Shown piece by piece: positions 3,198 to 52,954 of a stretch of 64,000 bases of DNA. A program made the position numbers and the translations under genes. Source of the stretch: a virus. The DNA lies in the UHGV virus genome UHGV-0038495. One strand, written 5' to 3'. How positions within the stretch are numbered: position 1 is the first letter of the stretch; every line of letters starts with the position of its first letter. The notes under the pieces were generated by a model, which ran no database searches, had not been told where the DNA came from, and saw only the letters and a list, made by a program, of their open reading frames with translations.

Positions 3198-3477
3198 TCT
3201 TATTTATCTCCTGTTTCAGTGTTTTCTTATAATTATCTACTGTTTTTCTGTATGTTTCTAATTTCCAAACTTCTGATTTAATATCATCAAGACATTTATT
3301 ATATAATTCTTCCTCAACGAATTTCTGCCTACTAACAATATTTGCGGTTGAAGATATTACCCATCCACATGGAAAAGTAGCTATAATTGTTATTGCTTTA
3401 TTGTTGGGTGTTGTATATACATCTTTTTTAGCTTTATCAACTAATGAGTCTATATATTCGCTTGTTAATTTCGTCAT
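3187..3477 (-). CDS. hypothetical protein
   Basis: ORF on the coding strand. Confidence 0.35.
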   Translation of the reverse strand: MTKLTSEYIDSLVDKAKKDVYTTPNNKAITIIATFPCGWVISSTANIVSRQKFVEEELYNKCLDDIKSEVWKLETYRKTVDNYKKTLKQEINKNEV

Positions 3478-3501
3478 TTTATTTTAATACTCTTTTCATA
3501 A

Positions 3502-3777
3502 TTATATTATATTTATTAATAACTGATTATAACCATTTCTAATCTTTTCTTCTTTTGCAATTTTTTCTCTTAAACCTTCACAATAAGCTTTGTTACCAAC
3601 TAAAGTAACAACATCACTATTATACTTCTTTGCAAAAGAAAGAGTAACATCTGGCAAATTATCTAATTCAAATGAACCAATTTTTCCTGCAAATCCATTA
3701 TCATTTAGTGTATATAAATCAAAAACATTTTTATCAAACATTTTAACATCAATCATTATTTTCATTCTGTATTTCAC
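3502..3777 (-). CDS. hypothetical protein
   Basis: ORF on the coding strand. Confidence 0.35.
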   Translation of the reverse strand: MKYRMKIMIDVKMFDKNVFDLYTLNDNGFAGKIGSFELDNLPDVTLSFAKKYNSDVVTLVGNKAYCEGLREKIAKEEKIRNGYNQLLINII

Positions 3778-4162
3778 CTACCTTTACAATACCTTTGTCA
3801 TAAGGTATTAATACTATACATTCCGCGCCGCGCTCTGAGCTTTGCTTAACCCAAATTTCAACGCTTTGTTTATTATCAGATATTTGAACATCTAATATTT
3901 CTCCAAGATTTGAAGAACAATCTATTACTTCTGCGCCAAATGAAACAGATAAATTAATTTTAGTATCATTTGGCTTTGTGTCATAAACTGTAAAATATCT
4001 AAGATTATGACATAATGCAATATAATAACGATTTTTATGATTATTATGAAAATCATTAATTATAAATTTAGCCTTATTAATACCCGCCCATTTTAATGGT
4101 GGATAGTTTTTTACAAGACTAGCATTAAAATCATACATGCTGTAACCAGATTTAATGTCCAT
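3749..4162 (-). CDS. hypothetical protein
   Basis: ORF on the coding strand. Confidence 0.35.
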   Translation of the reverse strand: MDIKSGYSMYDFNASLVKNYPPLKWAGINKAKFIINDFHNNHKNRYYIALCHNLRYFTVYDTKPNDTKINLSVSFGAEVIDCSSNLGEILDVQISDNKQSVEIWVKQSSERGAECIVLIPYDKGIVKVGEIQNENND

Positions 4163-4238
4163 TAAATTCTCCTTTATTATTTTTGTTAATTTATTATATC
4201 ATATTTTTTATATTATTAATAATTAATGCTTATGGTTT

Positions 4239-4799
4239 TTATTTTCTTTTTATATTTATTGTAGTTATCTTATCCTTTGCAAAAGCTATTGCAAGTTTAT
4301 ATTCCTTTTCATATTTTGTTCCTTTATGAGTTTCTTCAACAGCTTTTTCAAACTTATCTATATTACCATGAAAACAACCGCAAGATACATATATATTTCC
4401 ACCTCTACCTAAAAAGAATGTTGTAAAATCATCTCTGCTACCTATTGGGCCTACTGTAAACCAGTTCTTTTTGTCACTAATCATTGCATTATTCCCAATC
4501 TCTGCATTGCCGCGAACCCATGCATTATCACAAACTATTGTATTGCCATAAATTTGCGCGTTACCTCCAACTATCGCATTATCACGAATTTTCGCGTTAC
4601 TGTAGACTTTAGCATTATTATATACCCATGCATTACCTCCATGGCTTAAATTATTTTCACTTCCAATATACCCACCTAGTTCACCTGTTTTTACACCATT
4701 GAAATCTTTTAAAGCTTCTATTCTATATAATTTTCTTCCACAGATTGTTTTATAATCTTCAGAGATTAATCTATATTTTTTTATATCTGTATTCATCAT
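4239..4799 (-). CDS. Hexapeptide-repeat (left-handed beta-helix type) protein, short paralog
   Basis: About 8 tandem N-A-x-[IV]-x-x hexapeptides (NAKVYS NAKIRD NAIVGG NAQIYG NTIVCD NAWVRG NAEIGN NAMISD). Conserved N-terminus LYRIxALKDF...TGELGGYI.SE.NLSH.GNAWV. Conserved C-terminus VGPIGSR..TTF..GG.I.VSCGCF.G....FE. Paralog of 43740..44588. Confidence 0.55.
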   Translation of the reverse strand: MMNTDIKKYRLISEDYKTICGRKLYRIEALKDFNGVKTGELGGYIGSENNLSHGGNAWVYNNAKVYSNAKIRDNAIVGGNAQIYGNTIVCDNAWVRGNAEIGNNAMISDKKNWFTVGPIGSRDDFTTFFLGRGGNIYVSCGCFHGNIDKFEKAVEETHKGTKYEKEYKLAIAFAKDKITTINIKRK

Positions 4800-4809
4800 T
4801 ATATCTCCT

Positions 4810-5352
4810 TTAAATTTTACAATAAAATTCTTTATTGTATATTATCATATTATCATATCTTTCAGTATTATCATTATATTCTCCGTCTATTAATTCATAT
4901 ATTCTCTGATTTTTACTGCCGCGCATGGCAATTTCATAGGATTTCTGAGATTCAATAAACGGTCCATCTATTATCATATTCACTTTTAATTTTTTTAAGT
5001 TTTCTATTAATTTCTTTGGGAGTTCTTTAAAGAGATAACCCGTCCAAATCCTAATAATTATATCTGGATAGTGTTTTCTTACTTCCTTTACAATAGAAAG
5101 AACAGGTGCACAATTTGCTGGGGTTAGTGGCTCGCCGCCAAGTATATTAAAGTTACGTACTATATTATTCTTTGCTATTGCTTCTATAATTTCATTTAAT
5201 GTTTCTTCTGTAAATAACTTGCCATAGAGATAATCCCACGTCTCTGGGTTAAAACATCCGGTACAATGGTGTGGGCATCCAGATACGAAGAGGGAAACCG
5301 AAATTCCCTCTCCATTGGCTATATCATTATACTTTATATTAGCGTAATTCAT
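4810..5352 (-). CDS. nrdG: Anaerobic ribonucleotide reductase activating protein (radical SAM)
   Basis: N-terminal GCPHHCTGCFN Cys cluster. Size 180 aa. Lies immediately downstream of nrdD. Confidence 0.8.
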   Translation of the reverse strand: MNYANIKYNDIANGEGISVSLFVSGCPHHCTGCFNPETWDYLYGKLFTEETLNEIIEAIAKNNIVRNFNILGGEPLTPANCAPVLSIVKEVRKHYPDIIIRIWTGYLFKELPKKLIENLKKLKVNMIIDGPFIESQKSYEIAMRGSKNQRIYELIDGEYNDNTERYDNMIIYNKEFYCKI

Positions 5353-7467
5353 TTAATCTCCTAAATGAGTGACTCTGTCGTGAATATCTGCCGCACGACC
5401 CTCGTTAAACGGGTTTGTACTTATATATCCGCAGATTCGGAGCGCGACATTCATTTTATTATAATCATCATTACCACACTGTGGACAATGAAACTTTAAA
5501 TCATCGCCCATATAAATATCAGTACAACCACACTTATGGCAATAACTTGTCATTGTATTTATTTCAGCATACATAATATTTTCATATATATACTTAATAA
5601 CTTCTAATATTGCCGGAATATTTTTTGTCATATTTGGAGTTTCAATATAAGAAATCGCGCCACCCGGACTAAGTTCCTGAAACTCGCTTTCGATCTTTAA
5701 TTTAGAAAAAGCATCTATAGGCTGTGCCGGCGTAATATGATAACTATTAGTCACATAATCTTTATCGGTTATTCCTTTAATAATGCCAAATCTTTTCTTC
5801 AATGCTTTTGCAAACTTATAAGTTGTACTTTCTATTGGAGAACCATAAACTGAAAATCCTATAGTAGTTTCTTCTCTCCATTTAGCACAAGCATCATTTA
5901 AAGCTTGCATGACAGATAAACCGAATTCTTTACCATAATCTTCAAGCTGACTTTCTCCTGTCATATATTTAATACATTCAAATAAACCTGCATATCCAAG
6001 TGAAATTGTAGAATAATTATTATATAAAAGTTTATCTATCTTTTCGCCCGGAGCTAATCTCGCATATGCGCCATGTTGCCAGAGTATAGGAGCTACATCT
6101 GAGACAGTACCCTTTAAACTATTATGTCTTGTCATTAAAGCTCTATAACATAATTCAAGCCTCTCATCAAGAATCTTCCAAAACTTTTCCATGTTTCCAC
6201 CAGAGCTTAAAGCTACATCTGGAAGATTAATGGTAACTACACCTTGATTAAATCGACCCCAATACTTATGCCCTTCTGGGTCTGGGGTTAGGAACGACCT
6301 ACAGCCCATACAACCGTAAACGTCGCCCTTAAGTTCTCGCATCTTCTTCGCAGATATATAATCTGGCACTAAGCGCTTTGCGCTACATTCCGCAGCTAAT
6401 TTTGTAAGATACCAATATTTAGTTCCTTTTTTTATATTATTATCATCAAGACAATAAAGCAACTTAGGAAAAGCTATTGTTATAGGCGCACCTTTTTCAT
6501 TTGGAACTCCTTCAATTCTTTGTTTAAGAATTTCTTCAATTAAAGTTGCTAAATCTTTTTTAGTAACTTCATCTTCAACCTCATTAATCCACATAAAAAC
6601 CGAAGTAAAAGGTGCTTGACCATTGGTTGTACTCATTGTAATAAGCTGATACTGAATAGTTTGAACGCCATCTCTAATCTCTTCTCTTACTAAGGATTCT
6701 ATTTGTTCTGTTGTAAAATCTGGATGCTTTCTTTTTATTTCCTGTCTAGATACGTCTATAAAAGGAGCTAGATGTGCGAGCGTGATGGTATTTCCACCGT
6801 ATTGTGAGCTAGCTACTTGAGTAATAATTTGAGTTGCAATAGTACAAGCAGTTCTAAATGAATGAGGTTTATGTATCTGTACTCCAGAAATAACTGTACC
6901 ATTCTGAAGCATATCCTCAAGATTTATCAAACAACAGTTCGACATAGGCATAACGGGAGAATAGTCAGTGTCGTGGTAATGTATAATACCTGCTTCATGC
7001 GCTTCTATAATGTCTTTGGGAAGAATAACTTTTTCTGCTAATTCTCTACAAGTAAATCCTGCAATATAATCTCTCATGGTAGGAATAATTCTTGTATCTT
7101 TATTACTATTTTCTTTATTACTTTCTTCATCCTGTCCGGTAATTAATTTATGTAAGCGCTGATAACGATTTTCTAAATCACTATTCGTGGCTCTATCCTG
7201 TTCTCTTTTATATCTATATCTAATATACGCGCGAGCTACATCAGTTCTTTCAGAATCCATTAAATAAGTTTCAACTAAATTCTGTATCTCTTCGATAGAA
7301 AGAGAATCTACTGAACGCGCAATCTTTTCTATGTCATCAGCAATATCCATTGCTGTTTCATTCTCATATAATTTGCCATCAACTTCTATAAAAGCTTTAT
7401 TAATAGCTTTTATAATTTTGTTTTTATCAAAATCAACCTTACTACCATTTCTTTTAATAACTTTCAT
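5353..7467 (-). CDS. nrdD: Anaerobic ribonucleoside-triphosphate reductase (class III)
   Basis: 704 aa. C-terminal zinc ribbon (CHKCGC...CPQCG) followed by the glycyl-radical motif ALRICGYISTNPFNEGRAADIHDR. Confidence 0.9.
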   Translation of the reverse strand: MKVIKRNGSKVDFDKNKIIKAINKAFIEVDGKLYENETAMDIADDIEKIARSVDSLSIEEIQNLVETYLMDSERTDVARAYIRYRYKREQDRATNSDLENRYQRLHKLITGQDEESNKENSNKDTRIIPTMRDYIAGFTCRELAEKVILPKDIIEAHEAGIIHYHDTDYSPVMPMSNCCLINLEDMLQNGTVISGVQIHKPHSFRTACTIATQIITQVASSQYGGNTITLAHLAPFIDVSRQEIKRKHPDFTTEQIESLVREEIRDGVQTIQYQLITMSTTNGQAPFTSVFMWINEVEDEVTKKDLATLIEEILKQRIEGVPNEKGAPITIAFPKLLYCLDDNNIKKGTKYWYLTKLAAECSAKRLVPDYISAKKMRELKGDVYGCMGCRSFLTPDPEGHKYWGRFNQGVVTINLPDVALSSGGNMEKFWKILDERLELCYRALMTRHNSLKGTVSDVAPILWQHGAYARLAPGEKIDKLLYNNYSTISLGYAGLFECIKYMTGESQLEDYGKEFGLSVMQALNDACAKWREETTIGFSVYGSPIESTTYKFAKALKKRFGIIKGITDKDYVTNSYHITPAQPIDAFSKLKIESEFQELSPGGAISYIETPNMTKNIPAILEVIKYIYENIMYAEINTMTSYCHKCGCTDIYMGDDLKFHCPQCGNDDYNKMNVALRICGYISTNPFNEGRAADIHDRVTHLGD

Positions 7468-7478
7468 TAAAATACCTC

Positions 7479-8309
7479 CTAATCAAGTAAGTCTGCCATT
7501 GCCGCAGTTTCACTTCTCTCTGTTTTAAGAAGTTTTACATATCCAAAACGTGGATGTCCTTTAAGCCTATCAATCGCAGTCATAAGACCATTATTGCGCT
7601 CGAATATGGCTAAATCGGTCTGCTTAAAGTCTCCATTAATCCAGAGGTTGGAACCTTCACCTACGCGCCCTATGAGAAGCTGAATATGCTCTTTCGTCAA
7701 GTTCTCTGCTTCAGAACAAAGAATAATAGAATTCTTAATATCTCTACCTCTTATAAAGCCTAAATGAACTACTTCAACAACTCCCTTTTCTATCATATAA
7801 CTAAGTCCATCAACTCCACCTACATGGTCAGCAAGACACATCGCAAAAGGCAGAAGTTTTTCATTTGATGAACCCGGTAAATGACCTATCGGTTTAGAGT
7901 TTTTAACCTCTATATTATTTCTAACATAAACAAGTTTATCAAAATAACCTTTTTCAATTAAATCTATAGCGGCTGAACTCATTAATAAATCTTTGCCAGT
8001 ACCAAATTTACCAGTCAGAATTTTAATAGTTGTATCTGTATCATACAACATATCAATTCCTAATTTTTGCTGAATATTGCGCGGTTTGATTTTTCCCGCG
8101 AACTTAGATTCAATCGCCTTATACGGGACCTGTGCGAGCCGCCCATCTTTGCACTTAAATAAATCAATGACCTCTTCTTTTTCGTCTCTTGCGATTAAAT
8201 ATTCATTCTCAAGACAACCAAAAGTTTCATTACTTTTTGGGTCATAAAGTGCATTAATGTCATTAGGATTAGTTAAAACTATATCTTTAAAGCCTGTATA
8301 TTCAGTCAT
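7479..8309 (-). CDS. phoH: PhoH-like ATPase
   Basis: Walker A GKFGTGKD. PhoH signature ...RGRDIKNSIILCSEAENLT...LLIGRVGEGSNLWINGDFKQTDL. Confidence 0.7.
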   Translation of the reverse strand: MTEYTGFKDIVLTNPNDINALYDPKSNETFGCLENEYLIARDEKEEVIDLFKCKDGRLAQVPYKAIESKFAGKIKPRNIQQKLGIDMLYDTDTTIKILTGKFGTGKDLLMSSAAIDLIEKGYFDKLVYVRNNIEVKNSKPIGHLPGSSNEKLLPFAMCLADHVGGVDGLSYMIEKGVVEVVHLGFIRGRDIKNSIILCSEAENLTKEHIQLLIGRVGEGSNLWINGDFKQTDLAIFERNNGLMTAIDRLKGHPRFGYVKLLKTERSETAAMADLLD

Positions 8310-8321
8310 TTACAAAACCTC

Positions 8322-8897
8322 TTATATTTCTTTATTATAAAAATTATTAATATAACTACATACTTCACCTACAGCTGATTTCAACTGTGTCTTACTATTA
8401 TTTTTAATTGAATAATAAGGTAAAGCAAGCATATTGTCTTTGTCATATTTTCTTTCGTCATCTATAAAACGACGAATAATTTCATCAACATCGGGGTCTT
8501 TTTCTCTATTTAATGCACGCAATAATCTTTCCTTTGGAGTAGCTTCAACATATATTACAATAGTGAATAAATCAGGATCACTACAAAGCGCCTCGGCAGC
8601 ATTAAAATCACAAGTCATAATATTGATTAAATCATCTTTTAAAACATCTTTACCAGTTCCATAAAACCAGTTATTAAATTCAGCAGCTTCCGCCATCTCA
8701 CAATTCAAAACTTTTTTAGTAAATTCTTCATTATTTATGAAATAATAATCTTTGCCTTCTATTTCATAATCTCTTTTTGGTCTTGTTGTATATCTTACAA
8801 CAGGTGAACAGATGGAAGATTTCTTTAGAACTTTTTGATAAATAGTATCTTTACCACAGGCGCTTGGACCAATAATACATACAAGTTTCTTTTTCAT
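8322..8897 (-). CDS. Guanylate-kinase-like (d)NMP kinase
   Basis: IGPSACGKDT P-loop. TTRPKRDYEIEGKDYYFI..EEF (GMP-binding TTRPPR..E.DG.DY.FV). NWFYGTGK. Confidence 0.65.
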   Translation of the reverse strand: MKKKLVCIIGPSACGKDTIYQKVLKKSSICSPVVRYTTRPKRDYEIEGKDYYFINNEEFTKKVLNCEMAEAAEFNNWFYGTGKDVLKDDLINIMTCDFNAAEALCSDPDLFTIVIYVEATPKERLLRALNREKDPDVDEIIRRFIDDERKYDKDNMLALPYYSIKNNSKTQLKSAVGEVCSYINNFYNKEI

Positions 8898-9259
8898 ATG
8901 AAAATTACCTCATTTGCGCGACTACACATAAATCCCATATATCTAGTAAATTCAGGTGGAAGGATAGTATTTGTGTCGACATAGACCCTATCTAACGTCT
9001 CATACTCCCTTCGGTCTTTAAGCTGCGGCGCGCATATCCATACTTTATTTCCTTTTGCATAACCTAAATAAGGAAAATCTTCTTTTTTGCTATATACTGT
9101 TACATTATTTCTTATAAATAAATCTCTTATTAAATCAAAATTCCTTGAAAAGATTATTGATACCCTTGCGGGCTTAGGTTTGCTACGACCGCCATAAAGT
9201 GACTGATAATAGTTAATACTATCATCTGTCCATAAAGTAGATTGTCTTTGTATCTTCAC
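8894..9259 (-). CDS. hypothetical protein, translationally coupled to dnaE
   Basis: Its start overlaps the DnaE stop codon. No motif recognised. Confidence 0.4.
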   Translation of the reverse strand: MKIQRQSTLWTDDSINYYQSLYGGRSKPKPARVSIIFSRNFDLIRDLFIRNNVTVYSKKEDFPYLGYAKGNKVWICAPQLKDRREYETLDRVYVDTNTILPPEFTRYMGFMCSRANEVIFI

Positions 9260-12200
9260 TATTCCTCACCTTCTTCTTCTATTCCTCTTGCACGTTCACT
9301 TGTTATCATTATATTACCAAAATCATCTATTTCTGATACTCTATATAAAGTATGTCCACCTTGGCTAGCATATTTTTTAGCTACGAAGTCATTATCTCCT
9401 CTTCTCATACCGTTAATAACTAACATATTTCCTTTTGTAAACCAAGATTTTTCAATTATTTTCTTTTTACCATCTTCGCCCATAATTGAAATCTGTTTGT
9501 CATATATACTATAATAAGCTTTTGGGAATTTAATTGTTACAACAGTTCCGCCGCGAGTTAATAAAGATATAATATTTTTATTTTTATCTTTTGCAATAAC
9601 AGTTCCTATAATTTTACTTAGCTCAAACATATTGATTGTTCTGCCGCCTTTTTCAAACGAATTTGCTACGCGTGGTTCCACTGGAAGAGTTTCAAAATCT
9701 CGTAAACCATATTTACCATTATTTATATTTTTTAATTCATGTTCATGGAAATATAAACAAGTGCTTTCCATTTCCCAAGAACTATAATTAGGACGTTTTA
9801 CATATTTATCCCAATCTTCTTTAAATATCTTTTCATTTAATCTAAATAATACTTCTTCACCATCTTCTTTTAACCATTCTCTTAAATTATCCATTTCTTT
9901 TTGATAAATTTTATCCCATTGCTTTATTTTTAATATTTTATCATAATTTACAATAGAAAACAAGTCAAGATAGTTATTCTCAATAAATGATAAAGCTCTT
10001 TCGTCTAATTTATAATTTTCTGCATCAGATTTACAAATAGCCTTTAAATATCTATTAAATTCAAAAACCGCGCGCTCATGATTAAGGTTACTTGGAACGA
10101 GGTCTTCGAGAATAAGCTTACGCATATTCTGTAAAGTTAAACGTTTCTTTTTATCACAAGTACGCCAAATATACCAACCCATTAATTCCATTCTATTGGG
10201 TTCTAAACTGTCAAAAGCACCACTCTTTATTAATGATAACACTGCTGGTTTTTTTAATTTAACTCTATTTAAAAAATCTGGTACAGATACAAAAGGTCGA
10301 TTACTTATAATCTGTGAGATAACATCATCACCAACACTAACCAAACTTTTAAAACCATAATATATACAATTATTATCTACATCTGGCGCGAATATGGCTT
10401 CTGACTTATTGACATCTGGCGGAATGATTTTAATACCATTCTTTTTCATCTTTCCTATTGCGATAGCTATTTTATTATAGTCTGCACTTTCATTTTCTTT
10501 TGCGGCACCGCTATCTGTTATAAGACACGCGCAGTTCCAAAAAATGATCGGATACTTAAAACATAAGTTCATTTCCTGTAACCCTATGATACTATATGCT
10601 AGAGTATGTGAAAGATTAAAACCATATCCCCTAGATGTAGCTACTAGAACGTTCCATACATAGCGACAAAGATTTGGGCTTAAGTCTTTTTCCTCCACAG
10701 TTTTATAATATTCTTCTTGGAGCTTCATGTATGCTGTTGGATTTTTTTTGGCTATAGATTTACGGAGGGAGTCCGCCCACGTTAATGACATACCACCGCA
10801 CTCAGGAAGTTGAACAAGCATCATGAACCTTTCCTGCGATTCACATATCCCATATGAAGACTTTAAGATTGGTTCTAAAAGTTTTTGTTCTTCTTTGGTC
10901 AGACCATATCGATCCATTTCTGCATACCACAAAAATATATCTTTCTTAAAGCGCGCATATTTGTTTAATGGCTGCTCATCTCCAGGTTCTTGCGCCATAA
11001 GTCTAATTACAGAATTTAATGTTGCTAAATCATCCAAACACTCTGGTTTAGTGAGCGCTATGCCCTGAACTCCTGATTGTTTTTCCATCTGAAATAATGA
11101 TTCAATCTTGTGTGACCAAATCATTTTCCACATATCTTTATTTTCTCTTTCAAGGTTATAAACACCAATCGCCTTTTCATAAGTTTCTTTTAAAGTTGCA
11201 CCCGGTTCTAGATATTTATATTCTACAAGTAGGTCTAAGCACGTATGAATTTTATCAAGAGCTTCGACCGAAAGTAAATCTATCTTGATCAAGCTTACAT
11301 CCTCTGAATCATGGAGATCAAACTGAGTAACCACATCTCCATTTGGAACTCTCATGAGCGCGGTTGATTTTGTAAAAGGCTCGTCTACGAAAATAACACC
11401 ACCTGCATGTTCTCCGATTCCGCATACAAGACCTTCTATCCTTTGCGCAACAGACCAAAGTTCTGGATATAACTTCATCTGTCTTACAAACTCTGGTACT
11501 GGTTTAAAACCATTTTCTTCATCGCCATAATAACACTGTTTTAAAGTACGCGCAATACCTCTATCTACTGGTACAAGAGAAGCAAGATAAAGAGAAATGT
11601 CTACATCTATACCTAACCCACGCGCGGCAGTCTGCAAGGCACTTTTACTTTTTTCAGTTCTAAAAGTAATAACATTAGACACGCGGTCTTGCCCATAAAA
11701 ATCTCTTAAAGCCTGAAGTGTTTGTGCTCGTCTTCCCCCTTCGATATCTGTATCTATATCTAAGACTGATACTCTAGATGGATTAAGGAAGCGCCATGGA
11801 TATAATTTGGTTGTTTCCCAAAGAGGATTTATCTGAATTATATCTAAAAGATATAATAATATAAACCCTACGCCAGAACCACGACCGCATCCTACCAACG
11901 TGCCTGAATCCCAGCACACTTCAATAATTTTTTGAAGATTTAAGAAATATGCGCTCCAGTGCGCGTTGTTTACCTCTGAACTTTCCCAAGTCATCTGTAA
12001 ATTAATTTCAACTTCATCGTATATTCTCTGAGTCTGTAAGCGCACATCAGATTCTAATTTTTCAATGATTGCTCTCGCTAAAACTTTATCGCCATTAAAT
12101 GATGATTCAACGAACTTTTTAAGTGAAGGAATCCTCTTAAAATACACGTCTGGGATTATTTTTAAAGTCGGCTCATTCCATACAAGAGAAGGAATAACTA

Positions 12201-13122
12201 AAGGTTTCATTAAACTATAATCTCGCGCGCGTGCAGCAACTTCTGCGATTGTTTCATTTGCTTTTACGATTATCTCTTCTTCTATAAAATCATTTAATTC
12301 ATTACCAGACATTAAATAAGTTGTAGCATAGAATGATTTTACTTCACGTTCACCTTCTTGTGCATTAAGAAAAGCTTCGTGAATTGGTGCATCTTCAGGT
12401 CTAGCATAATGACTATCGGTCGTGATTATATATGGTATATCTAATTCTTCAGACAATTTTAACAAACCTGCATTTGCTATTTTCTGCTCTTTATATTTAG
12501 AAGGCTGTAATTCTAATAAGAAATTACCTTTACCAAAAATACTCTGCATTGATAAACACCAACCAAGAATATTATTCCAAAGCGTAGGATCTGGATTCTC
12601 ATTATATTGGAGTAGTTTATTATCTAAGAATCCACCCAAGCAGGCTGTCGCGCCAACTACATGACCCGGATTTGCGCTTATAATATCAATTAAATCTTGA
12701 TAGTATGTAGGTCTGCGCGCCATCTTACCTGTTTTCCAACTGCGCATCCAAGCACGTGTTGATAATTCTCTTATTTGTTCATGTCCTGTTGCATCTAAAG
12801 CGAGTAAAATAAAATGGTAAAATTTATCCTGACCTTTAATAAAGTTATCTTTAGTCAATTCATCTCTACAAAGATATATTTCATTACCTCTAATAACTTT
12901 AAAGTCTGGATGCTTTTCTTTGATTTTATTATAATACTTTTCTATTTTTATCGCATTTGATACAGTTTCATGTTCTGTTATGGCTATTACCTTATGTCCA
13001 AGTGCAATCGCTGTATCTATTAACCCTCCTATTGTATTAATAGAATCTCTTAAATACAAATTGCTATAATCGGTATGATTGTGTAATGAGCCTATGTATT
13101 CTATTGTTCTTAAAGAATCCAT
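9259..13122 (-). CDS. dnaE: DNA polymerase III alpha subunit (DnaE-type, family C) with N-terminal PHP domain
   Basis: PHP motifs LHNHTDYS and AITEHET. Finger/palm region with VVTQFDLHDSEDVSLIKIDLLS (compare DnaE DFLGL). 1287 aa. Confidence 0.85.
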   Translation of the reverse strand: MDSLRTIEYIGSLHNHTDYSNLYLRDSINTIGGLIDTAIALGHKVIAITEHETVSNAIKIEKYYNKIKEKHPDFKVIRGNEIYLCRDELTKDNFIKGQDKFYHFILLALDATGHEQIRELSTRAWMRSWKTGKMARRPTYYQDLIDIISANPGHVVGATACLGGFLDNKLLQYNENPDPTLWNNILGWCLSMQSIFGKGNFLLELQPSKYKEQKIANAGLLKLSEELDIPYIITTDSHYARPEDAPIHEAFLNAQEGEREVKSFYATTYLMSGNELNDFIEEEIIVKANETIAEVAARARDYSLMKPLVIPSLVWNEPTLKIIPDVYFKRIPSLKKFVESSFNGDKVLARAIIEKLESDVRLQTQRIYDEVEINLQMTWESSEVNNAHWSAYFLNLQKIIEVCWDSGTLVGCGRGSGVGFILLYLLDIIQINPLWETTKLYPWRFLNPSRVSVLDIDTDIEGGRRAQTLQALRDFYGQDRVSNVITFRTEKSKSALQTAARGLGIDVDISLYLASLVPVDRGIARTLKQCYYGDEENGFKPVPEFVRQMKLYPELWSVAQRIEGLVCGIGEHAGGVIFVDEPFTKSTALMRVPNGDVVTQFDLHDSEDVSLIKIDLLSVEALDKIHTCLDLLVEYKYLEPGATLKETYEKAIGVYNLERENKDMWKMIWSHKIESLFQMEKQSGVQGIALTKPECLDDLATLNSVIRLMAQEPGDEQPLNKYARFKKDIFLWYAEMDRYGLTKEEQKLLEPILKSSYGICESQERFMMLVQLPECGGMSLTWADSLRKSIAKKNPTAYMKLQEEYYKTVEEKDLSPNLCRYVWNVLVATSRGYGFNLSHTLAYSIIGLQEMNLCFKYPIIFWNCACLITDSGAAKENESADYNKIAIAIGKMKKNGIKIIPPDVNKSEAIFAPDVDNNCIYYGFKSLVSVGDDVISQIISNRPFVSVPDFLNRVKLKKPAVLSLIKSGAFDSLEPNRMELMGWYIWRTCDKKKRLTLQNMRKLILEDLVPSNLNHERAVFEFNRYLKAICKSDAENYKLDERALSFIENNYLDLFSIVNYDKILKIKQWDKIYQKEMDNLREWLKEDGEEVLFRLNEKIFKEDWDKYVKRPNYSSWEMESTCLYFHEHELKNINNGKYGLRDFETLPVEPRVANSFEKGGRTINMFELSKIIGTVIAKDKNKNIISLLTRGGTVVTIKFPKAYYSIYDKQISIMGEDGKKKIIEKSWFTKGNMLVINGMRRGDNDFVAKKYASQGGHTLYRVSEIDDFGNIMITSERARGIEEEGEE

Positions 13123-13506: not shown

Positions 13507-15765
13507 TTAATCTTTTTTTATAATAACAAGTTTATCTATCGCGCGAGTTACTGCGGTATAAAGCCAGCGTTTATGTTCTTCATTTTCGAATGGGAATCCT
13601 TCCTCTATAACAAGGACCTTATCGAACTGGCTACCTTGCGATTTATGGGTCGTGATCACATACCCATAAGCTACGTCATTGGGAAGAGGGCTGTGAAACC
13701 GCTTATTTTTTCTTAACTTATATAAATCCTGCCCAGTTAAAATAGAAGTTCCTGTAGCTAACATCTGTTTCTCAACAATAACATCACGAATAATATCATC
13801 ATTATCTAATCTTAAATCTACTTTATAACAAGGAATAATTCTTTCAGATTCAGATTCTTTTAACCAATAAGGTAAAACAACTTCATATTCTCTAATATTT
13901 TCAACAGTTCCTATCGTACCATTTGTTAAACTTGCTTCTTCACTATCAGAGACTTTATCATCATAATTATGTAAACAAATAAGTCTTTCACCCGGAACTA
14001 ACAACTTGTCTGAATACCCAAGTTGCTTACGCACATTGTTATTATAAGCTATTCTTTTTTTATTAGTTGCGCATAATGTAACATCAGCCCACGTCAACAT
14101 ACCTTCAGTCAAATCCGCCGCATTAAATATTTGTACTTCTTTCCCATGAAATTCTTTTAAAGACTCACCTTCTCGAATTTGCATAGAGACCTGTATTATT
14201 TCACTTTCTTTTGCCTGTCTCATTATCTCATCTAAGAATACATGAGGATGATCTAAGAGATGATTATCATCATTCTTAGAGATTGGAGGTAGCTGTCCGG
14301 GGTCTCCGCAGCATATAAGATAAACAGGATACGAGAGCAAGTCCTGAATCATCTTAGTTGGGACCATAGATACTTCATCTATTACTATAACCTTTGGACC
14401 CAACTCTTTTCTCTTTGTTCTCATATAAGTGCCATTAGGCATTTGTGTGTTATAGTACAAGAGCTTATGAAGTGTAGTTGCGCCTGGATTGCCTTTGTCT
14501 TTTAAAACCTGCGCGGCTTTACCTGTAAATGCACAGTAAGCTACGTCCATTTCATCTAAGTCTAGGGCTGCTATAATAAAATTAACTACAGTGGTATTAT
14601 GAGTAACTATAAAGTCATTTGTAAGATATAAATGCTCTTCATTATCAACATAAATACATATCATTTCTGTACTATAATTTTCTTTTATTATTTCTACTAT
14701 TGAATTCTTATTATAATTTTTATTCTTAATGTAATTCTTAGCCTTTATAGCTATTTCTTTTTTACGAGGTAATCTAAATAATTTATATTTTTCTTCATTT
14801 GGTATATTAATATTTAAATTATAGCATTTTCCAGTGCTATATTTATTACTTCTTTTATCTTCTGTAATGGTTGAGCTATAACTTAAAGATTGTAAAACTT
14901 CTTTTACATCTAAAATTAACTGTAAACTTGTAGACGTATATCGAATATTAAATCTATTATTACTTTCTGTAATAGACCCATCTGTATCTAGTATACCTTG
15001 TAATAAACTTAAACGCTGTTCTATTGACCCCCTTTTATAAATTTCAGGAATTCTTTTATCTTGAGCTGCACAACAAATTTCTTCTTGAAATTCACTAAAA
15101 AATTGATTTGTTTGAAATTTTAAAGTAGTCCAACCATTTCCTTCTATTGGGGCTGGAAGTAAAAAAGTCCAATTATAATTATCCACAGAATTTTTTTCTA
15201 CATCCTTTGCGCCGATTAAATCTTTTATAAAAATTGGAATTTGTTCGTTTTCAGAAGATATAGTTAATTGTCTTTGCTTACAACAACCATCTCCTAGAAA
15301 AGCACCAATAACATACGGGTCTATTTTATAATCTTGTTTTTCATACTGTACGGGTAAATTATTTGGCACAGCATATTTAAAACCTGCCGAATTAGTTAAA
15401 CCTTTGTTAAGAAGTTCTTCTGTCGTTAAAGTCTGCTTCTGATTTTTCTTATTTAAAACTGTCCATAAATGGTCTCCCGCGCACTGAGTTTCTCTTTTGT
15501 CTTTTAACTTTAAAGTATAGACTTTTTTTTCTCCTTGAGGATAAATTCCCATAACTTTTGTAGGTAATCCTTTTCTATCAAAGACATAATCTCCTATTTT
15601 TAATTCTCCTATTTTTCTCCAACCATTAGGAGTAGGGACCATCGTATCTATAGGCTGTGCTTTGCCTGCACCTGCATACCCAGATATCACGGTCATTTTC
15701 TCTCCGTCTCGATACCTTTTAACGGCTATTTTAACCGCTTCTTTCTGCTTTGCTGTTAATTCCAT
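13507..15765 (-). CDS. RecD/Dda-like SF1 helicase interrupted by a LAGLIDADG intein
   Basis: N-extein ...VISGYAGAGK. C-extein TTVVNFIIAA...AYCAFTGKAAQVL...ATTLHKLL...VIVIDEVSMV...GDPGQLPP (helicase motifs I, Ia, II, III). The removed 355 aa restores the GAGKTT P-loop. Confidence 0.8.
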   Translation of the reverse strand: MELTAKQKEAVKIAVKRYRDGEKMTVISGYAGAGKAQPIDTMVPTPNGWRKIGELKIGDYVFDRKGLPTKVMGIYPQGEKKVYTLKLKDKRETQCAGDHLWTVLNKKNQKQTLTTEELLNKGLTNSAGFKYAVPNNLPVQYEKQDYKIDPYVIGAFLGDGCCKQRQLTISSENEQIPIFIKDLIGAKDVEKNSVDNYNWTFLLPAPIEGNGWTTLKFQTNQFFSEFQEEICCAAQDKRIPEIYKRGSIEQRLSLLQGILDTDGSITESNNRFNIRYTSTSLQLILDVKEVLQSLSYSSTITEDKRSNKYSTGKCYNLNINIPNEEKYKLFRLPRKKEIAIKAKNYIKNKNYNKNSIVEIIKENYSTEMICIYVDNEEHLYLTNDFIVTHNTTVVNFIIAALDLDEMDVAYCAFTGKAAQVLKDKGNPGATTLHKLLYYNTQMPNGTYMRTKRKELGPKVIVIDEVSMVPTKMIQDLLSYPVYLICCGDPGQLPPISKNDDNHLLDHPHVFLDEIMRQAKESEIIQVSMQIREGESLKEFHGKEVQIFNAADLTEGMLTWADVTLCATNKKRIAYNNNVRKQLGYSDKLLVPGERLICLHNYDDKVSDSEEASLTNGTIGTVENIREYEVVLPYWLKESESERIIPCYKVDLRLDNDDIIRDVIVEKQMLATGTSILTGQDLYKLRKNKRFHSPLPNDVAYGYVITTHKSQGSQFDKVLVIEEGFPFENEEHKRWLYTAVTRAIDKLVIIKKD
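14596..15660 (-). mobile_element. Intein (Hint domain plus LAGLIDADG homing endonuclease) inside the helicase P-loop
   Basis: Block A-like start AQPIDTMVPTPNGWRKIGELKIGDYV. Block B ..AGDHLWT. Two LAGLIDADG motifs (YVIGAFLGDG and LLQGILDTDGSI). C-terminal FIVTHN followed by +1 Thr. The first intein residue is Ala rather than Cys or Ser. Confidence 0.7.
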
Positions 15766-15893
15766 TCCTTTTTCTCCTTTTAACTTTTCTAATATTCTTT
15801 TTATTTCTTATTTATATTTTATCATATTTTTTATTTTCTTTAAAAATAGAACAAAAAAACAGGAAAATCTACTAGAGACTTTCCTGTTCTTTA

Positions 15894-16721
15894 TTAATTT
15901 ACGAAATAATTATATGCAGCTCGCGCATTTGCTTGACGCTTACTACAAGTACCAAAAGAACCTCTACCATAAGCATATAAATATGCTTTAGCAGCTTCTT
16001 CTGGTGAAGTTAAATTACAAAAGTCTTTATAAGTAAAGCCAGACTTATATAATCTACCATAGGTATTGAAATTTGATTCAAGTGTATTTGCTAAATAATT
16101 TAACTGAACAAGCGTGGACGCGCCATGAATACCATAGGACTTACTCCATTGACATAACCCGTAGTATTTTCCCGTAGGATTATATACATAAGGGTTTAAA
16201 TCTAAAGTTCCGCCGCCACATTCTTGCATCATGTTACCAAGTATTCCAGCTGTAACCGCGTCATTATATCCCTTAGACTTTAAAAAAGCCCAAACCTCGC
16301 CTGCAACAGGAGAAGAAGAAATCTTAGCATACATCTTTTTACCTTCTTCTATTTTCTTCTGTTCAGCATATTTATTTTCATAATGTTGTTTCGCGCTTTT
16401 TGCTTGAGCATATTCATCTTGTGCCAGTTGAATTACAGCATGTTCTTCATCATAAGATAAATTTCTTGCAGCTTCAGCCATATCATGCGCGTCATCCATT
16501 CGTTTCTGACTTTCTTGAATTAAACTATTTAATTTATTTAAATCAGTAGTTTCAACAATCGCATAAGACGCGGAAAGAGGTTTAGGATCTTCAGTCTCAG
16601 CTGTATCTGCATGAGCCCTAATTCCTATGACCGCTATGGCGGCTGCCGCGACTAAACCTATAATAATTATATTCTTTGTTTTCATAATGTTGTTCTTCCT
16701 TTCTCTTGTTTCTAGTAACAA
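15894..16721 (-). CDS. Membrane-anchored coiled-coil protein with C-terminal GH73-like (glucosaminidase/lysozyme-like) domain
   Basis: N-terminal transmembrane/signal segment IIIIGLVAAAAIAVIGI. C-terminal AGILGNMMQECGGGTLDLNP...GLCQW...YLYAYGRG, resembling the A.ESG.G catalytic region of FlgJ/AcmA-type hydrolases. Confidence 0.45.
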   Translation of the reverse strand: MLLETRERKNNIMKTKNIIIIGLVAAAAIAVIGIRAHADTAETEDPKPLSASYAIVETTDLNKLNSLIQESQKRMDDAHDMAEAARNLSYDEEHAVIQLAQDEYAQAKSAKQHYENKYAEQKKIEEGKKMYAKISSSPVAGEVWAFLKSKGYNDAVTAGILGNMMQECGGGTLDLNPYVYNPTGKYYGLCQWSKSYGIHGASTLVQLNYLANTLESNFNTYGRLYKSGFTYKDFCNLTSPEEAAKAYLYAYGRGSFGTCSKRQANARAAYNYFVN

Positions 16722-16845
16722 CTATAAGACAAGAGCCGTTGTTTGGGCATTATGAAATAGCTTGTGCTTACTATTCCATTTTAATTAATCATAATTATAC
16801 CATATTTTTCATTATTAACGACTCTTTTTCATTCAGAACTCTTTC

Positions 16846-19760: not shown

Positions 19761-20004
19761 TTTTTACCTCATACTCTTTACAAAAACGAGGAATATTTTC
19801 ATAATCAATCTTTTTATCTTTTAAAAGACATTCTTTTATCTCTGGTAAGAAAGGAATTGGTAAAGTGCGCGCTCTATAATATTTACAATATTTACAGCGC
19901 TTATGTTTTTGCCTATAAGCAATCATATTTTTGTCCATTAAAAAGCTCCTTTTTCTACGTTTATATTTGTTCCTTTTAAACCTTGAACTATTTGATAATC
20001 CCAA
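19738..20004 (-). CDS. possible small basic Cys-containing protein (uncertain)
   Basis: 88-aa ORF that fills the 177-nt gap between helicase and primase but overlaps both. Very basic; contains CKYCKYY. Confidence 0.25.
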   Translation of the reverse strand: MGLSNSSRFKRNKYKRRKRSFLMDKNMIAYRQKHKRCKYCKYYRARTLPIPFLPEIKECLLKDKKIDYENIPRFCKEYEVKNGRTTEG

Positions 20005-21467
20005 GTTGTTGCTATTGTAAAATCTACTCTACAAACACCTAATCTTTTATATCCAAAAAGATATATACCATTCCAAGGTGAACGTCTGTTTTTATAAATA
20101 GCTAACTTTATATCTGGGATTCTACCATCTGAGAATAAATGTTGCATACTCGTGAGCATATCTCGGTCTCTATCATTGAGAGGTAAAAGATGACATCCAA
20201 AGTCTAGCTTGTCTCCTACTGCCTTAGACCCCCGTAATAATCTCTGGTCTGGGGTGGAAGTATCTAAATCACCTGATAACTGCGTTGAACTTATTATCCA
20301 AACATTATAAAGAACTGCTATTTCTTTTATTTTTGTTGCCAAAAGAAAGAGAATCTGATCTTCTCTGATATTATTGACTTTAGTCCTATTAGATATTTCT
20401 GCTAATATTTTCATTGTACTTTGAATATAATCAAAACAAATATAAGTTGCATTTCTTTCTTCTATATTATATTTAATCCTGCGCTCTATATCTTCTAAGC
20501 TAAAGTCTGGAAGAAATTCAAGATATAATGGAGAATTCTCAAGAATTTGTATTCCTTTTAATATTCTTTCATATTCATCTTCTTCATAGTCACCAGTTAA
20601 TATATGACTTTCATTGACTTCGCATATAAAAGAAAGAAGTAAAGTCTGCGCTTCTGACCTGTCCTGCTCAGTCAAAATAAATAAAGTTGGCGCGGGAGCT
20701 GGATTCTTAACCCATCCACCCTTGGCACTATCATAATATTCTATACATGATAAGAATGCGGCATCCTGCGCTAAGAGTCTTGACTTACCGACTCCGGTCG
20801 GCGCACTACGTAAATAGAACTTACCCAAACGCGCGCCCATTGTTACAGTTGTATATACAGGGTCATAGAATGGAAGACCATATGCCGGATGCTGACGCAA
20901 TTCTTCTACTAAATCTGCCGCGCCCTCAGCAGCCTGGCAAGATAAATCCTCAGAACCGCCGCCATAATTATTTACTACTTTATCTATTTGCTTTTGTATT
21001 CTATCGGAAATGTCTGTCAAACTTGCATTATTTAACCATTCTTCTTGTTTTTCTTTCTTTTTTGTATCTATTAAATTATCTTCATCTAAAATATCAGAAA
21101 CATCAACGCCGATTTTACTGAGCTGGCGCAATAAAGTCATTTTCTGTAATCTTTCAGCATAATAATTAAAACCAGTTTCTTCTGCATTTTCTGCGCAGTT
21201 ACGTATAAAATCTATACCACCACCAGACTTAAATACAGCTTCAGCTTTAGGCTTATTCTCAAGATAATCTAATATTACATTTTCTGAAAAATCTGTTATC
21301 TTATTATTAAAATAAAGATTATATAAAGTACCATAAACTATTTTATGAAATTTATTTGGAAAATCTTCATTAGTTAAATAAACCTTTTCTAAAAGAGAAG
21401 GATTATTATAAATATTTCCTATTACCTGTACAGTACAGGTTGTATCTAAAAACCTAATTCTCTCCAA
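19938..21467 (-). CDS. DnaB-like replicative helicase
   Basis: 509 aa. RecA-fold Walker A RSAPTGVGKSRLLAQDAAF. Walker B-like LFILTEQD. Sits between a putative loader and the primase. Confidence 0.55.
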   Translation of the reverse strand: MERIRFLDTTCTVQVIGNIYNNPSLLEKVYLTNEDFPNKFHKIVYGTLYNLYFNNKITDFSENVILDYLENKPKAEAVFKSGGGIDFIRNCAENAEETGFNYYAERLQKMTLLRQLSKIGVDVSDILDEDNLIDTKKKEKQEEWLNNASLTDISDRIQKQIDKVVNNYGGGSEDLSCQAAEGAADLVEELRQHPAYGLPFYDPVYTTVTMGARLGKFYLRSAPTGVGKSRLLAQDAAFLSCIEYYDSAKGGWVKNPAPAPTLFILTEQDRSEAQTLLLSFICEVNESHILTGDYEEDEYERILKGIQILENSPLYLEFLPDFSLEDIERRIKYNIEERNATYICFDYIQSTMKILAEISNRTKVNNIREDQILFLLATKIKEIAVLYNVWIISSTQLSGDLDTSTPDQRLLRGSKAVGDKLDFGCHLLPLNDRDRDMLTSMQHLFSDGRIPDIKLAIYKNRRSPWNGIYLFGYKRLGVCRVDFTIATTWDYQIVQGLKGTNINVEKGAF

Positions 21468-22305: not shown

Positions 22306-23310
22306 CTAAACATTTGTATGTTCAGAAACCATAGCCTTTAATTCATCAACAACAAGTGATAAAAGCTCAGCCTGCTCTCTCGAACATTGACTAACTTTCT
22401 TTCCCTTACCAAGAATCTTATCTGTAATCTCTGTTACTCGCGGCGCCCAAAATTCAGCAAAATTCGCTTCCTTTGAGAGAGAAGTTATGATTGTGTTAAA
22501 CTCTTCAAGAATCTTGTCAAAATCATAAGTAACAACTTCTTCTCTTACAATTTTCTTATCTGTTACTGCACCGGCGCCATTCATTTCAGCTTCTTTATCT
22601 ATTGCTTCATTTAAAGCATCAACAAGTGGTTTATAACCAAATGGAATCTTTTCTGCCATATAAGGGAATCTTGTACCACAATCTATTGTACCGTCATTAC
22701 TTCTGAGATACATAACTCTCTCGCCTGTGCGCCAATCCATACAACCATAACCAATAATATCTGCCATATTTTTAATTATGTTATTTACTGAATCAGAAAC
22801 TGTAGGTACAATCTTTGTATACTCCGTTCCATCAGGTCTAGTAATTGTCTTCTCTTTATCATGTCCTATAAAAAGAATCGCATAGCCCTGGAGTGCAAGG
22901 TCTCTAAATGTAGTTTCAATCTCTTTCTTCAACTGAGTCCACCCTCCACCCCAGCTTATATCACCCAGTTTCTCGACTCCGTTCTGAGAACAAACCCATT
23001 TCTCACAAAGGCTAGCCGCAACATCAATAGTATCTATGGCAAGTGCCTTATATCTTTCCTTAAACCTTGGGTCTTTAGCAAGTCTCGCGATTGTTCTTAC
23101 ATCACCCCAAGACTGCATTATCTGCGCGTACGCGCCGGACATTGCCCTAGTACCATCTTCAAAGGATAAGATTAAAGCACCCATGTCCTTAGCCAAAGTG
23201 GATTTACCAACTTTCGGCGCACCAAAGACATAGGTAATATATCCTGAAAGGTCGCGCGATACAACTGACGGCTCCATATTAATTAATGAATCTAATGTAA
23301 AATTTGCCAT
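22306..23310 (-). CDS. Sak4-like (AAA_24) RecA-fold ATPase
   Basis: Walker A VFGAPKVGKST. Walker B ALAIDTID. Size and context typical of phage Sak4. Confidence 0.6.
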   Translation of the reverse strand: MANFTLDSLINMEPSVVSRDLSGYITYVFGAPKVGKSTLAKDMGALILSFEDGTRAMSGAYAQIMQSWGDVRTIARLAKDPRFKERYKALAIDTIDVAASLCEKWVCSQNGVEKLGDISWGGGWTQLKKEIETTFRDLALQGYAILFIGHDKEKTITRPDGTEYTKIVPTVSDSVNNIIKNMADIIGYGCMDWRTGERVMYLRSNDGTIDCGTRFPYMAEKIPFGYKPLVDALNEAIDKEAEMNGAGAVTDKKIVREEVVTYDFDKILEEFNTIITSLSKEANFAEFWAPRVTEITDKILGKGKKVSQCSREQAELLSLVVDELKAMVSEHTNV

Positions 23311-25625: not shown

Positions 25626-26546
25626 TTAGCGCGAGCCGCTAACAGTATTAAATCCAGATGCAACAGAGTCATAAAAATCAATCCAATAAGATTCTAAATC
25701 AGCAAGTTCATTAACATTACCAGTTTGTAAAATCTCAAATGTAAAGTTCTCAACACCAAGAGTAAACAAAGTATTATAGAACGGCGCCGTTCCCTTAGAC
25801 GCCCTTAATCCACATCTTATGTGCTGACGGAATCGTTCTGCAATATCTACACTACGTCCTATGTAACATCTACCATCAGGAATATAAGTTATCTTATAAA
25901 TACCTAAAACTCTATCAGAACCAACAACTCTGTCTATCATTTCTCCTGTTAAACTTTGATAATATTCTTTCCAAATAAGTTTATATAAAACATCCGGATT
26001 TTTTAATTCTAAAGCTAAATTTTTAAGCTTCTCTATATCATTCAAATTTGCAATAGGAACACAAACACGATGATAATCGCGGTCGGCATGTTCTTTTTCA
26101 GCTAATTTGCGTGCAGTATTAGCAGCTTTTATTTTCGCGCGCTCCTCGCTTAAAGTTCTTTTTGCCTGGTTTAATTCTTCTACAATCTTACCTGCATCGG
26201 TTGCATACTCAGCGCGCATCCTATCTAACATTTCTTTTTGCTTTTCCTCTTGCTCAATTTCTAATTGCGCGAGCCTTTCTTTATTTTGCTGTCTTTGCGC
26301 GTCTAACTTACCAGATTCGAATAATAGGTTTTTTGAAAGTTCATCTTGTTCTTTTGTTAGTTCATCAACTTTTTCTTTACCTTTTGCAATTAAATCTTCT
26401 ATATCTTTATAAGTAGTTTTTTTACTTTCTAATTCATTATTCATTAAAGTTATATTGTGATGAATTTTTTTAGCTTTTTTATTTAAAAAATAAAACCACG
26501 CGCCAGTTGCCATTGCAAATAAAATACTAAATATTGTTCCCGCCAT
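25626..26546 (-). CDS. Transmembrane, coiled-coil protein with C-terminal GIY-YIG nuclease domain
   Basis: N-terminal transmembrane segment IFSILFAMATGAWFYFL. About 150 aa of heptad-rich E/K/Q sequence. C-terminal GIYKITYIPDGRCYIGRSVDIAERFRQH...E (GIY-10 to 11 residues-YIG, with Arg, His and Glu). Confidence 0.6.
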   Translation of the reverse strand: MAGTIFSILFAMATGAWFYFLNKKAKKIHHNITLMNNELESKKTTYKDIEDLIAKGKEKVDELTKEQDELSKNLLFESGKLDAQRQQNKERLAQLEIEQEEKQKEMLDRMRAEYATDAGKIVEELNQAKRTLSEERAKIKAANTARKLAEKEHADRDYHRVCVPIANLNDIEKLKNLALELKNPDVLYKLIWKEYYQSLTGEMIDRVVGSDRVLGIYKITYIPDGRCYIGRSVDIAERFRQHIRCGLRASKGTAPFYNTLFTLGVENFTFEILQTGNVNELADLESYWIDFYDSVASGFNTVSGSR

Positions 26547-28392: not shown

Positions 28393-28400
28393 ATTATCTC

Positions 28401-51866: not shown

Positions 51867-51958
51867 TGGAGGAAGGAGTGAGATTCGAACTCACATGCCG
51901 AAGAACTTCGACCTAACGCTTTAGCAGAGCGCCCTCTTTACCATTTGAGTACCCTTCC
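51867..51958 (-). tRNA. tRNA-Ser (GCU), class II with long variable arm, CCA encoded
   Basis: Acceptor GGAAGGG/TCCTTCC. Anticodon stem GCGCU/AGCGU, loop CU-GCU-AA. 7-bp variable-arm hairpin GTCGAAG-TT-CTTCGGC. T arm GTGAG-TTCGAAT-CTCAC. Ends TCCA. Confidence 0.8.
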
Positions 51959-52312: not shown

Positions 52313-52314
52313 AT

Positions 52315-52950: not shown

Positions 52951-52954
52951 ATGT

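Follow-up and report, generated by a model that had tools for sequence, protein, structure and literature searches.

Class 3 inteins, as defined by Tori et al. (PMC2807308; we took the definition from this study and PMC5050341), lack Cys, Ser or Thr at residue 1 and carry a Trp-Cys-Thr (WCT) triplet, with Trp at block B position 12 (two after the His), Cys at block F position 4 and Thr at block G position 5 (PMC2807308), and they nearly always have Ser or Thr at position +1 (PMC2807308). Class 2 (KlbA-like) inteins are without the WCT triplet, and in these Cys+1 attacks the N-terminal junction directly (PMC2807308). The position between Lys and Thr of the Walker A motif was named the 'classic' P-loop intein site by Kelley et al. 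(PMC5050341), the occupation of this same position in non-homologous P-loops by class 3 inteins has already been described (PMC10710043; PMC2807308), and a published list of bacterial intein hosts includes RecD (PMC4760082). Here we analyse a 64,000-nucleotide stretch of virus genome UHGV-0038495, all of which we refer to as the window, in which the gene for a RecD/Dda-like helicase of superfamily 1B (SF1B) very probably carries a full-length class 3 intein at its P-loop site.

The closest full-length system is the intein of phage Bethlehem (Tori et al. 2010, PMC2807308), the class 3 prototype (MP-Be). Both inteins are phage-encoded, of similar length (341 vs 355 aa), carry a LAGLIDADG endonuclease and have a non-nucleophilic residue 1, and they share a His-x-Trp block B, Cys at block F position 4, a THN terminus and Thr+1 in a collinear alignment. 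They differ in that they are only 24% identical overall, the prototype has Pro at residue 1 where the window intein has Ala, and the prototype occupies a non-P-loop site in the large terminase (VSQDQ/TKNTF; slashes within sequences mark junctions), whereas the present insert lies in the Walker A motif of an SF1B helicase. We extracted the prototype, known as a 'DnaB' intein, using the published primers and extein residues (VSQDQ/P...THN/TKNTF), which placed it in gp11 of AY500153, the large terminase (TerL, L006); inspection of Bethlehem gp62, annotated as DnaB-like (L005), found no intein.

Two mycobacterial inteins, Msm DnaBi1 (Mycobacterium smegmatis, 6BS8) and Mch DnaB1 (M. chimaera, 6RIX and 6RIY), also belong to class 3, carry the WCT triplet and occupy a helicase P-loop between Lys and Ser/Thr (PMC6195587). 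These are however mini-inteins without an endonuclease in the cellular DnaB of superfamily 4 (SF4), not in a phage RecD/Dda-like SF1B helicase, and the Cys that serves them as redox partner, Cys48, falls outside the splicing blocks, whereas here another Cys (Cys60) is conserved. The cyanophage-like gp41-1 intein resembles the window insert in block A, in a block B of the form ..C..EHL[F/W], in the block F core I[D/C]I and in its THN end, but it belongs to class 1, is split in nature, starts with Cys1 and has Phe at block B position 12 and Asp at block F position 4. The class 2 KlbA intein of Methanococcus jannaschii shares Ala at residue 1 and the terminal Asn, but is archaeal, has Cys+1 and is without the WCT triplet, in contrast to the triplet and Thr+1 found here in a phage P-loop helicase.

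The site itself, GK/T in unrelated nucleoside triphosphatases (NTPases), is shared with the Anaeramoeba cluster 1 and related phage class 3 inteins (PMC10710043) and with TerL1-a, a 'classic P-loop insertion' (PMC5050341); our examples differ from these published P-loop homers in that they come from metagenome contigs of the European Nucleotide Archive (ENA) and Logan, including large phage contigs of ~130–140 kb. The insert is typical of class 3 P-loop inteins and will hold little surprise for a specialist. Current understanding is left unchanged: class 3 inteins, their preference for phages and helicase P-loops, and their spread to non-homologous P-loops have all been published, whilst the AQP...THN clade of about 350-aa LAGLIDADG inteins to which our sequence belongs is unnamed in the cited P-loop intein literature.

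A helicase interrupted within its Walker A motif

The helicase precursor is encoded on the minus strand in a single reading frame that stays open over 2256 nt of AT-rich sequence; an AAGGAG ribosome-binding site precedes the ATG. Its main parts are as follows.

13507..15765 (- strand): precursor open reading frame (ORF), 752 aa, 86.0 kDa, RecD/Dda-like SF1B helicase plus intein (ORF listing, Pfam, NCBIfam)
15661..15765 (- strand): N-extein, residues 1-35, ending ISGYAGAGK, the first part of Walker A (translation, alignment)
14596..15660 (- strand): predicted intein, 355 aa, 41.0 kDa, precursor residues 36-390 (Pfam and NCBIfam, PDB sequence, fold and family matches)
13507..14595 (- strand): C-extein, residues 391-752 plus stop codon, beginning TTVVNF (ORF listing, alignment)
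14593-14595 (- strand): Thr+1, Thr391, the Walker A Thr and predicted second nucleophile (alignment; Thr in 98/98 relatives)

The host protein has the make-up of an SF1B helicase, with an AAA_30/AAA_19 core, a UvrD_C_2 C-terminal domain and, once conceptually spliced, a Walker A motif reading GYAGAGKTT; matches were to AAA_30 (1.8e-21), AAA_19 and UvrD_C_2 (2e-14) in Pfam and to RecD2 (1.3e-35) in NCBIfam. The spliced protein, computed at 397 aa and 45.0 kDa, matches Dda-like/RecD-like helicases of Enterococcus, Bacillus, Listeria and Staphylococcus phages in one piece over 98–99% of its length, and is 35–39% identical over 99% of its length to those annotated as such in Enterococcus and Bacillus phages. 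Five intein-free metagenomic proteins are far closer, at 94, 94, 91, 83 and 82% identity.

Alignment to the intein-free Dda-like helicase of Enterococcus phage VRE9_4 paired precursor residues 1-35 with residues 1-35 (57% identity) and residues 391-748 with residues 36-382. As the VRE9_4 helicase aligns as two abutting blocks, the alignment places the insertion exactly at K35/T36 of the intein-free protein, with no residue gained or lost. The insert runs from AQPIDTMVPTPNGW to DFIVTHN and separates the invariant Lys of Walker A from the Thr; it lies in frame within a conserved host protein, and its removal yields GYAGAGKTT and restores a collinear host sequence. The original prediction had proposed an insert at 14596-15660 lying exactly in the Walker A motif, starting with Ala and ending in HN before Thr, whose removal recreates GAGKTT. 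Its reading of the ORF, the exteins and the coordinates is correct throughout, the Walker A location is borne out by the intein-free homologues, and Ala36 of the precursor is indeed intein Ala1.

Predicted Hint and endonuclease domains

Searched alone, the insert matched 245 database proteins at E<=1e-5, the best at 51–58% identity (5e-130). Both junctions could be resolved in 98 of the 120 listed matches among these 245 proteins, and the junction statistics given here refer to these 98 relatives; together with the window intein they form the 99-sequence alignment used for the internal residues. The parts of the predicted intein are listed below.

15619..15660 (- strand): block A, AQPIDTMVPTPNGW; residue 1 is Ala, a non-nucleophile (Ala1 in 95/98 relatives)
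15457..15498 (- strand): block B, KRETQCAGDHLWTV (aligned to MP-Be His65 and Trp67 and to HQW of Msm DnaBi1)
15481..15483 (- strand): Cys60, conserved, block B position 6 (Cys in 93/99 aligned sequences)
15469-15471 (- strand): His64, block B (99/99 aligned sequences)
15463-15465 (- strand): Trp66, WCT, block B (Trp in 92/99 aligned sequences, Phe in 7)
14701..15363 (- strand): LAGLIDADG homing endonuclease domain, intein residues ~100-320 (PF14528, Foldseek)
15280-15315 (- strand): LAGLIDADG motif 1, YVIGAFLGDGCC, intein residues 116-127 (translation)
14974-15006 (- strand): LAGLIDADG motif 2, LLQGILDTDGS, intein residues 219-229 (translation)
14620..14667 (- strand): block F, EMICIYVDNEEHLYLT (aligned to MP-Be, Msm DnaBi1 and Mch DnaB1)
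14656-14658 (- strand): Cys335, WCT, block F position 4, predicted first nucleophile (Cys in 99/99 aligned sequences)
14596..14616 (- strand): block G, DFIVTHN, with Thr353, His354 and Asn355 (alignment; THN in 96/98 relatives)
14602-14604 (- strand): Thr353, WCT (block G position 5)
14596-14598 (- strand): terminal Asn355 (block G)

In Pfam the insert matched LAGLIDADG_3 (PF14528, E=6.6e-13), whilst weaker matches to Intein_splicing, Hom_end_hint and intein_Nterm (Pfam, NCBIfam) fell at the expected ends of the insert; the Hint and intein_Nterm matches are correctly placed but lie under the curated cut-offs. An AlphaFold2 model of the intein built from 48 homologues was very confident (mean pLDDT 96.1, pTM 0.93). 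Foldseek matched it over its full length to PI-SceI (2e-16), TliVMA and PI-PfuI in the PDB, and the endonuclease domain to PI-SceI, PI-PfuI and I-DmoI. The Hint part superposed on gp41-1 (6QAZ and 6RIZ), 6BS8, 6RIX and 6RIY at about 1.9–2.5 Å, with the class 3 structures 6BS8, 6RIX and 6RIY at about 1.9–2.0 Å.

The predicted fold displays blocks A, B, F and G and a C-terminal Asn, as a Hint domain should, and a two-motif monomeric endonuclease of PI-SceI-like fold. An acidic residue is kept in both LAGLIDADG motifs (YVIGAFLGD124G and LLQGILDTD227G), with Asp225 found in 98/99 and Asp227 in 96/99 of the aligned sequences. Judged by sequence and modelled structure, the insert is an intein in which a LAGLIDADG homing endonuclease interrupts the Hint splicing domain. 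The same had been foreseen from two LAGLIDADG motifs and a block B His, now identified as His64, and it finds support in the Pfam match, the 245 database relatives and the Foldseek results.

Assignment to class 3

The intein carries Ala1, His64-Leu-Trp66, Cys335 in EMICIYVDNEEHLY, Thr353-His354-Asn355 and Thr+1, so that every sequence feature of class 3 that we tested is present: a non-nucleophilic residue 1, Trp66, Cys335, Thr353 and Thr+1 (Thr391). BLASTP aligned it to the MP-Be prototype from residue 4 to the last residue (E=8e-31), pairing H64, W66, C335, T353, H354, N355 and T+1 with H65, W67, C320, T339, H340, N341 and T+1 respectively. Block F, EMIC335IYVDNEEHLY, aligns to VKC320IGIDTEDHLF of MP-Be and to VRCVEVDN of 6BS8 and 6RIX, which sets Cys335 against Cys118 of Msm DnaBi1 and Cys124 of Mch DnaB1, whilst Trp66 aligns to W67 of Msm DnaBi1.

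Searches of PDB sequences with phmmer gave gp41-1 as the best match, both as the split intein (6QAZ, E=1.6e-8) and in its WCT-engineered form (6RIZ, 4.8e-11), followed by the class 3 DnaB inteins (6.9e-8 for 6BS8 and 3e-5 for 6RIX and 6RIY); in these alignments the signature residues fall on those of 6BS8, 6RIX, 6RIY and the WCT-engineered gp41-1. The same residues are near-invariant in the family. The block F Cys and the block B His occur in 99/99 aligned sequences, Trp in 92/99 (Phe in 7) and Cys60 in 93/99, whilst the relatives' junctions have GK at -2/-1 and Thr+1 in 98/98 and end in THN in 96/98. We therefore consider a full-length class 3 intein at the P-loop site of a RecD/Dda-like SF1B helicase very probable.

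Probable acquisition by homing

The host is a ~140 kb SPbeta-like phage assembled from metagenomes. It has no close cultured relative, as a megablast of positions 13000-17000 against 50,697 phage records returned no match. An identical 752-aa protein was found on six metagenomic contigs, the longest of which (139,874 bp) also encodes YorF and YorH (SPbeta-type), DnaB, a RecJ-like exonuclease, DNA polymerase III alpha, NrdD/NrdG, PhoH and guanylate kinase. A syntenic sibling contig of 141 kb (L007) has the same gene order with a 396-aa helicase lacking the intein, and intein-free alleles 94% and 91% identical to the window helicase occur on syntenic sibling contigs. The intein-free alleles of L007 and L008 are candidate substrates of the endonuclease; at the junction these and the window gene read as follows.

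L007, intein-free allele: GGCAAA/TCTACAGTTGTG
L008, intein-free allele: GGTAAG/TCTACGGTTGTA
window gene with the intein deleted: GGCAAA/ACCACTGTAGTT

A more distant 130 kb contig (L009) carries an intein at the same helicase position that is 73.7% identical to the window intein, whilst the exteins share only 47.5% (C-extein) and 57% (N-extein) identity. The nearest exteins (80–94% identical) are intein-free. With inteins at 73.7% and exteins at 47.5–57%, the two histories disagree, as homing would predict. The intein is also more AT-rich than the C-extein, with a GC content of 0.28 vs 0.357 and a third-position GC content (GC3) of 0.152 vs 0.275. The sequence comparison indicates that this phage lineage acquired the intein by homing. 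The residues after the junction read TTVVN in the window and TTLVN in L009, but STVVS in the intein-free relatives at 94, 94, 91 and 83% identity (four of five), a difference consistent with either a short co-conversion tract or selection for Thr+1. The locus represents a clear natural presence/absence polymorphism of an intein among sibling ~140 kb SPbeta-like phages, with discordant intein and extein histories.

Siblings appear to differ in which replication gene is occupied. The DNA polymerase III alpha gene of the window (9259..13122, - strand, 1287 aa) is intein-free, whilst that of L007 (11583..16745, 1720 aa) has matches to Hint_2 and LAGLIDADG_3, so that by domain content the sibling phages carry inteins in different replication genes, the helicase here and DNA polymerase III alpha in L007.

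In L009 the intein-containing helicase is intact, occupying a single frame of about 753 aa at 3311..5572. In the public annotation this gene begins only within the intein (P0104, 523 aa), and another call of 90 aa lies upstream of it, which illustrates how such inteins lead to mis-annotation. We suggest that the window gene be annotated as an intein-containing Dda/RecD-like helicase with a mature product of 397 aa and an intein labelled class 3.

Alternative explanations

Several points weigh against the assignment of an active class 3 intein. The WCT triplet grafted onto the class 1 gp41-1 intein gave no productive splicing (PMC7664689), and the triplet alone is therefore no guarantee of activity. 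For this protein we infer splicing, a block F thioester intermediate and endonuclease activity alike. Furthermore, the ratio of nonsynonymous to synonymous substitution rates (dN/dS) between the window and L009 inteins, about 0.12, is a rough value, as dS is near saturation.

The least unlikely of the alternatives is that the insert is a decayed, non-splicing remnant, a dead passenger in a helicase that is either inactivated for good or works with the insert in place. Splicing here is predicted only, and decay does occur in the family, where some relatives have lost the endonuclease and retain inteins of 232–289 aa (P0120, P0118, P0086), a loss which fits the usual intein life cycle. The window intein however has its catalytic and signature residues and both LAGLIDADG acidic residues intact, its frame is open over the 2256 nt, and the predicted fold is very confident. 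Even read with the caution that near-saturated dS demands, dN/dS is about 0.1 in every part (0.11 for the N-terminal Hint part, 0.13 for the endonuclease and 0.08 for the C-terminal Hint part, window vs L009), implying purifying selection, which argues that both intein activities are maintained. A 355-aa insert in GK/T would moreover destroy nucleotide binding, yet the exteins are strongly constrained (dN/dS ~0.07 vs L008). We consider a dead remnant improbable.

Less likely still is a class 2 mechanism, in which the +1 residue would attack the N-terminal junction directly and form the standard branched intermediate without a block F intermediate. This had been the original prediction's first suggestion, on the strength of Ala1, and residue 1 is indeed Ala in KlbA inteins. 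Of the class 2 features we found only this non-nucleophilic residue 1; class 2 is defined by the lack of WCT and by Cys+1 attack in its known KlbA members (PMC2807308), whereas the full triplet and Thr+1 are present here and align residue for residue with the class 3 prototype. Thr+1 would be ill suited to attack an amide directly, 99/99 aligned sequences have Cys and not the usual Asp at block F position 4, and the characterised inteins that come nearest in sequence and in fold are those of class 3 and gp41-1 rather than KlbA. Since all class 3 sequence features are present and two of those of class 2 are missing, the class 2 suggestion is wrong in our view, and we give it very little weight. 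The accompanying idea of a variant worth testing holds in so far as Ala1 does need explaining, but such a variant was already described in 2009 and Ala1 is normal in this clade (95/98 relatives, with Ser in 2 and Pro in 1).

A misplaced boundary, with a class 1 intein starting at a nearby Cys or Ser and undergoing the canonical N-S/N-O acyl shift, is highly improbable: intein-free homologues set the junction at K35/T36, any shift would leave extra residues within Walker A, and between precursor Ser28 and Thr41 there is no Cys, Ser or Thr beyond those fixed by the alignment.

Proposed splicing and homing

The following scheme for a class 3 intein is modelled on its homologues, the Bethlehem, Msm DnaBi1 and Mch DnaB1 inteins. 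The 86 kDa precursor, with its P-loop split, would be unable to bind ATP properly until spliced, an argument that has been made for P-loop inteins (PMC6195587). Cys335, activated by His64, would attack the Lys35-Ala36 amide to give a thioester-linked block F branched intermediate; the hydroxyl of Thr391 (Thr+1) would then take over the N-extein, and the block G branched intermediate would result. Cyclisation of Asn355 would free the 41.0 kDa intein, and an O-to-N acyl shift would restore GAGKTT in an active 45.0 kDa helicase. In the prototype, C320 mutants abolish both splicing and N-terminal cleavage with Thr+1 intact. The endonuclease of the freed intein may in turn cut intein-free helicase alleles during co-infection, allowing the intein to spread by homing.

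A clade of P-loop inteins

The host proteins of the relatives contain AAA_30, AAA_33, PhoH, UvrD, AAA_24, RuvB-type AAA and guanylate kinase Pfam domains. By these alignments, a single class 3 intein clade occupies the same GK/T position in non-homologous NTPases. More distant relatives, at roughly 30–36% identity, were present in 725 cultured-phage records, including 300 Mycobacterium phages. Amongst these, the helicases of Vibrio phage 424E50-1 (GSGK/AQPIF...FIVTHN/TT) and Proteus phage 10 (GKGK/LQPLS...FIVTHN/TF) are annotated simply as helicases. The 424E50-1 helicase (L011, 931 aa) has a second motif, LITHN/TYLKLY, ~170 residues downstream of its P-loop intein, which may be a second intein or a remnant of one.

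Cys60 lies four residues before the catalytic His64 and is also present in gp41-1 (ICSEEHL). In Msm DnaBi1 a redox pairing links Cys48 and Cys118 (PMC6195587), and by analogy Cys60 might pair with the catalytic Cys335. It is conceivable, if doubtful, that the clade marked by AQP...C60...H-x-W...C335...THN is a specialised, promiscuous P-loop-homing lineage which recognises GK/T-coding DNA, moves in this way between non-homologous NTPase genes of large gut phages and has a Cys60-Cys335 redox switch; if so, maturation of the helicase would be conditional on the redox state of the host. The clade, with ~250 relatives in at least seven P-loop families on metagenomic contigs that are for the most part phage-like, provides a data set for the movement of class 3 inteins between non-homologous P-loop genes and a possible source of Thr+1-compatible inteins for protein engineering.

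Other features of the window

The window contains further P-loop genes, encoding PhoH (7479..8309), guanylate kinase (8322..8897), DnaB (19938..21467) and an AAA_24 protein (22306..23310). By their lengths and a hidden Markov model (HMM) scan all four are intein-free, and an HMM built from the 98 relatives detected no second intein of the same family in any six-frame ORF of the window. Close relatives of the window intein occupy PhoH, guanylate kinase and AAA_24 proteins elsewhere, and DnaB is a classic class 3 intein host; the four genes are potential non-allelic homing targets.

Two ORFs of about 306–309 aa with a C-terminal GIY-YIG nuclease domain, at 25626..26546 and 35604..36533 (both - strand), are probably free-standing homing endonucleases. 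The latter also has helix-turn-helix (HTH)/winged-helix matches, and the kilobase around it has the highest AT content in the window (GC ~0.235 around 35600).

Nearly all ORFs of at least 120 aa in the 64 kb window are on the minus strand. A plus-strand ORF at 15662..15991 (109 aa, TTG start), antisense to the start of the helicase gene and the upstream intergenic region, is low-complexity and hydrophobic and was rejected as most likely a mechanical ORF. Five tRNA genes (Ser-GCT, Gln-TTG, Lys-TTT, Ala-TGC and Thr-GGT) are clustered at 51867..53441 (- strand), on the same strand as the protein genes, and the region 27247..32636 (- strand) encodes GyrB-like (633 aa) and GyrA-like (777 aa) type II topoisomerase subunits together with an ATP-dependent DNA ligase.

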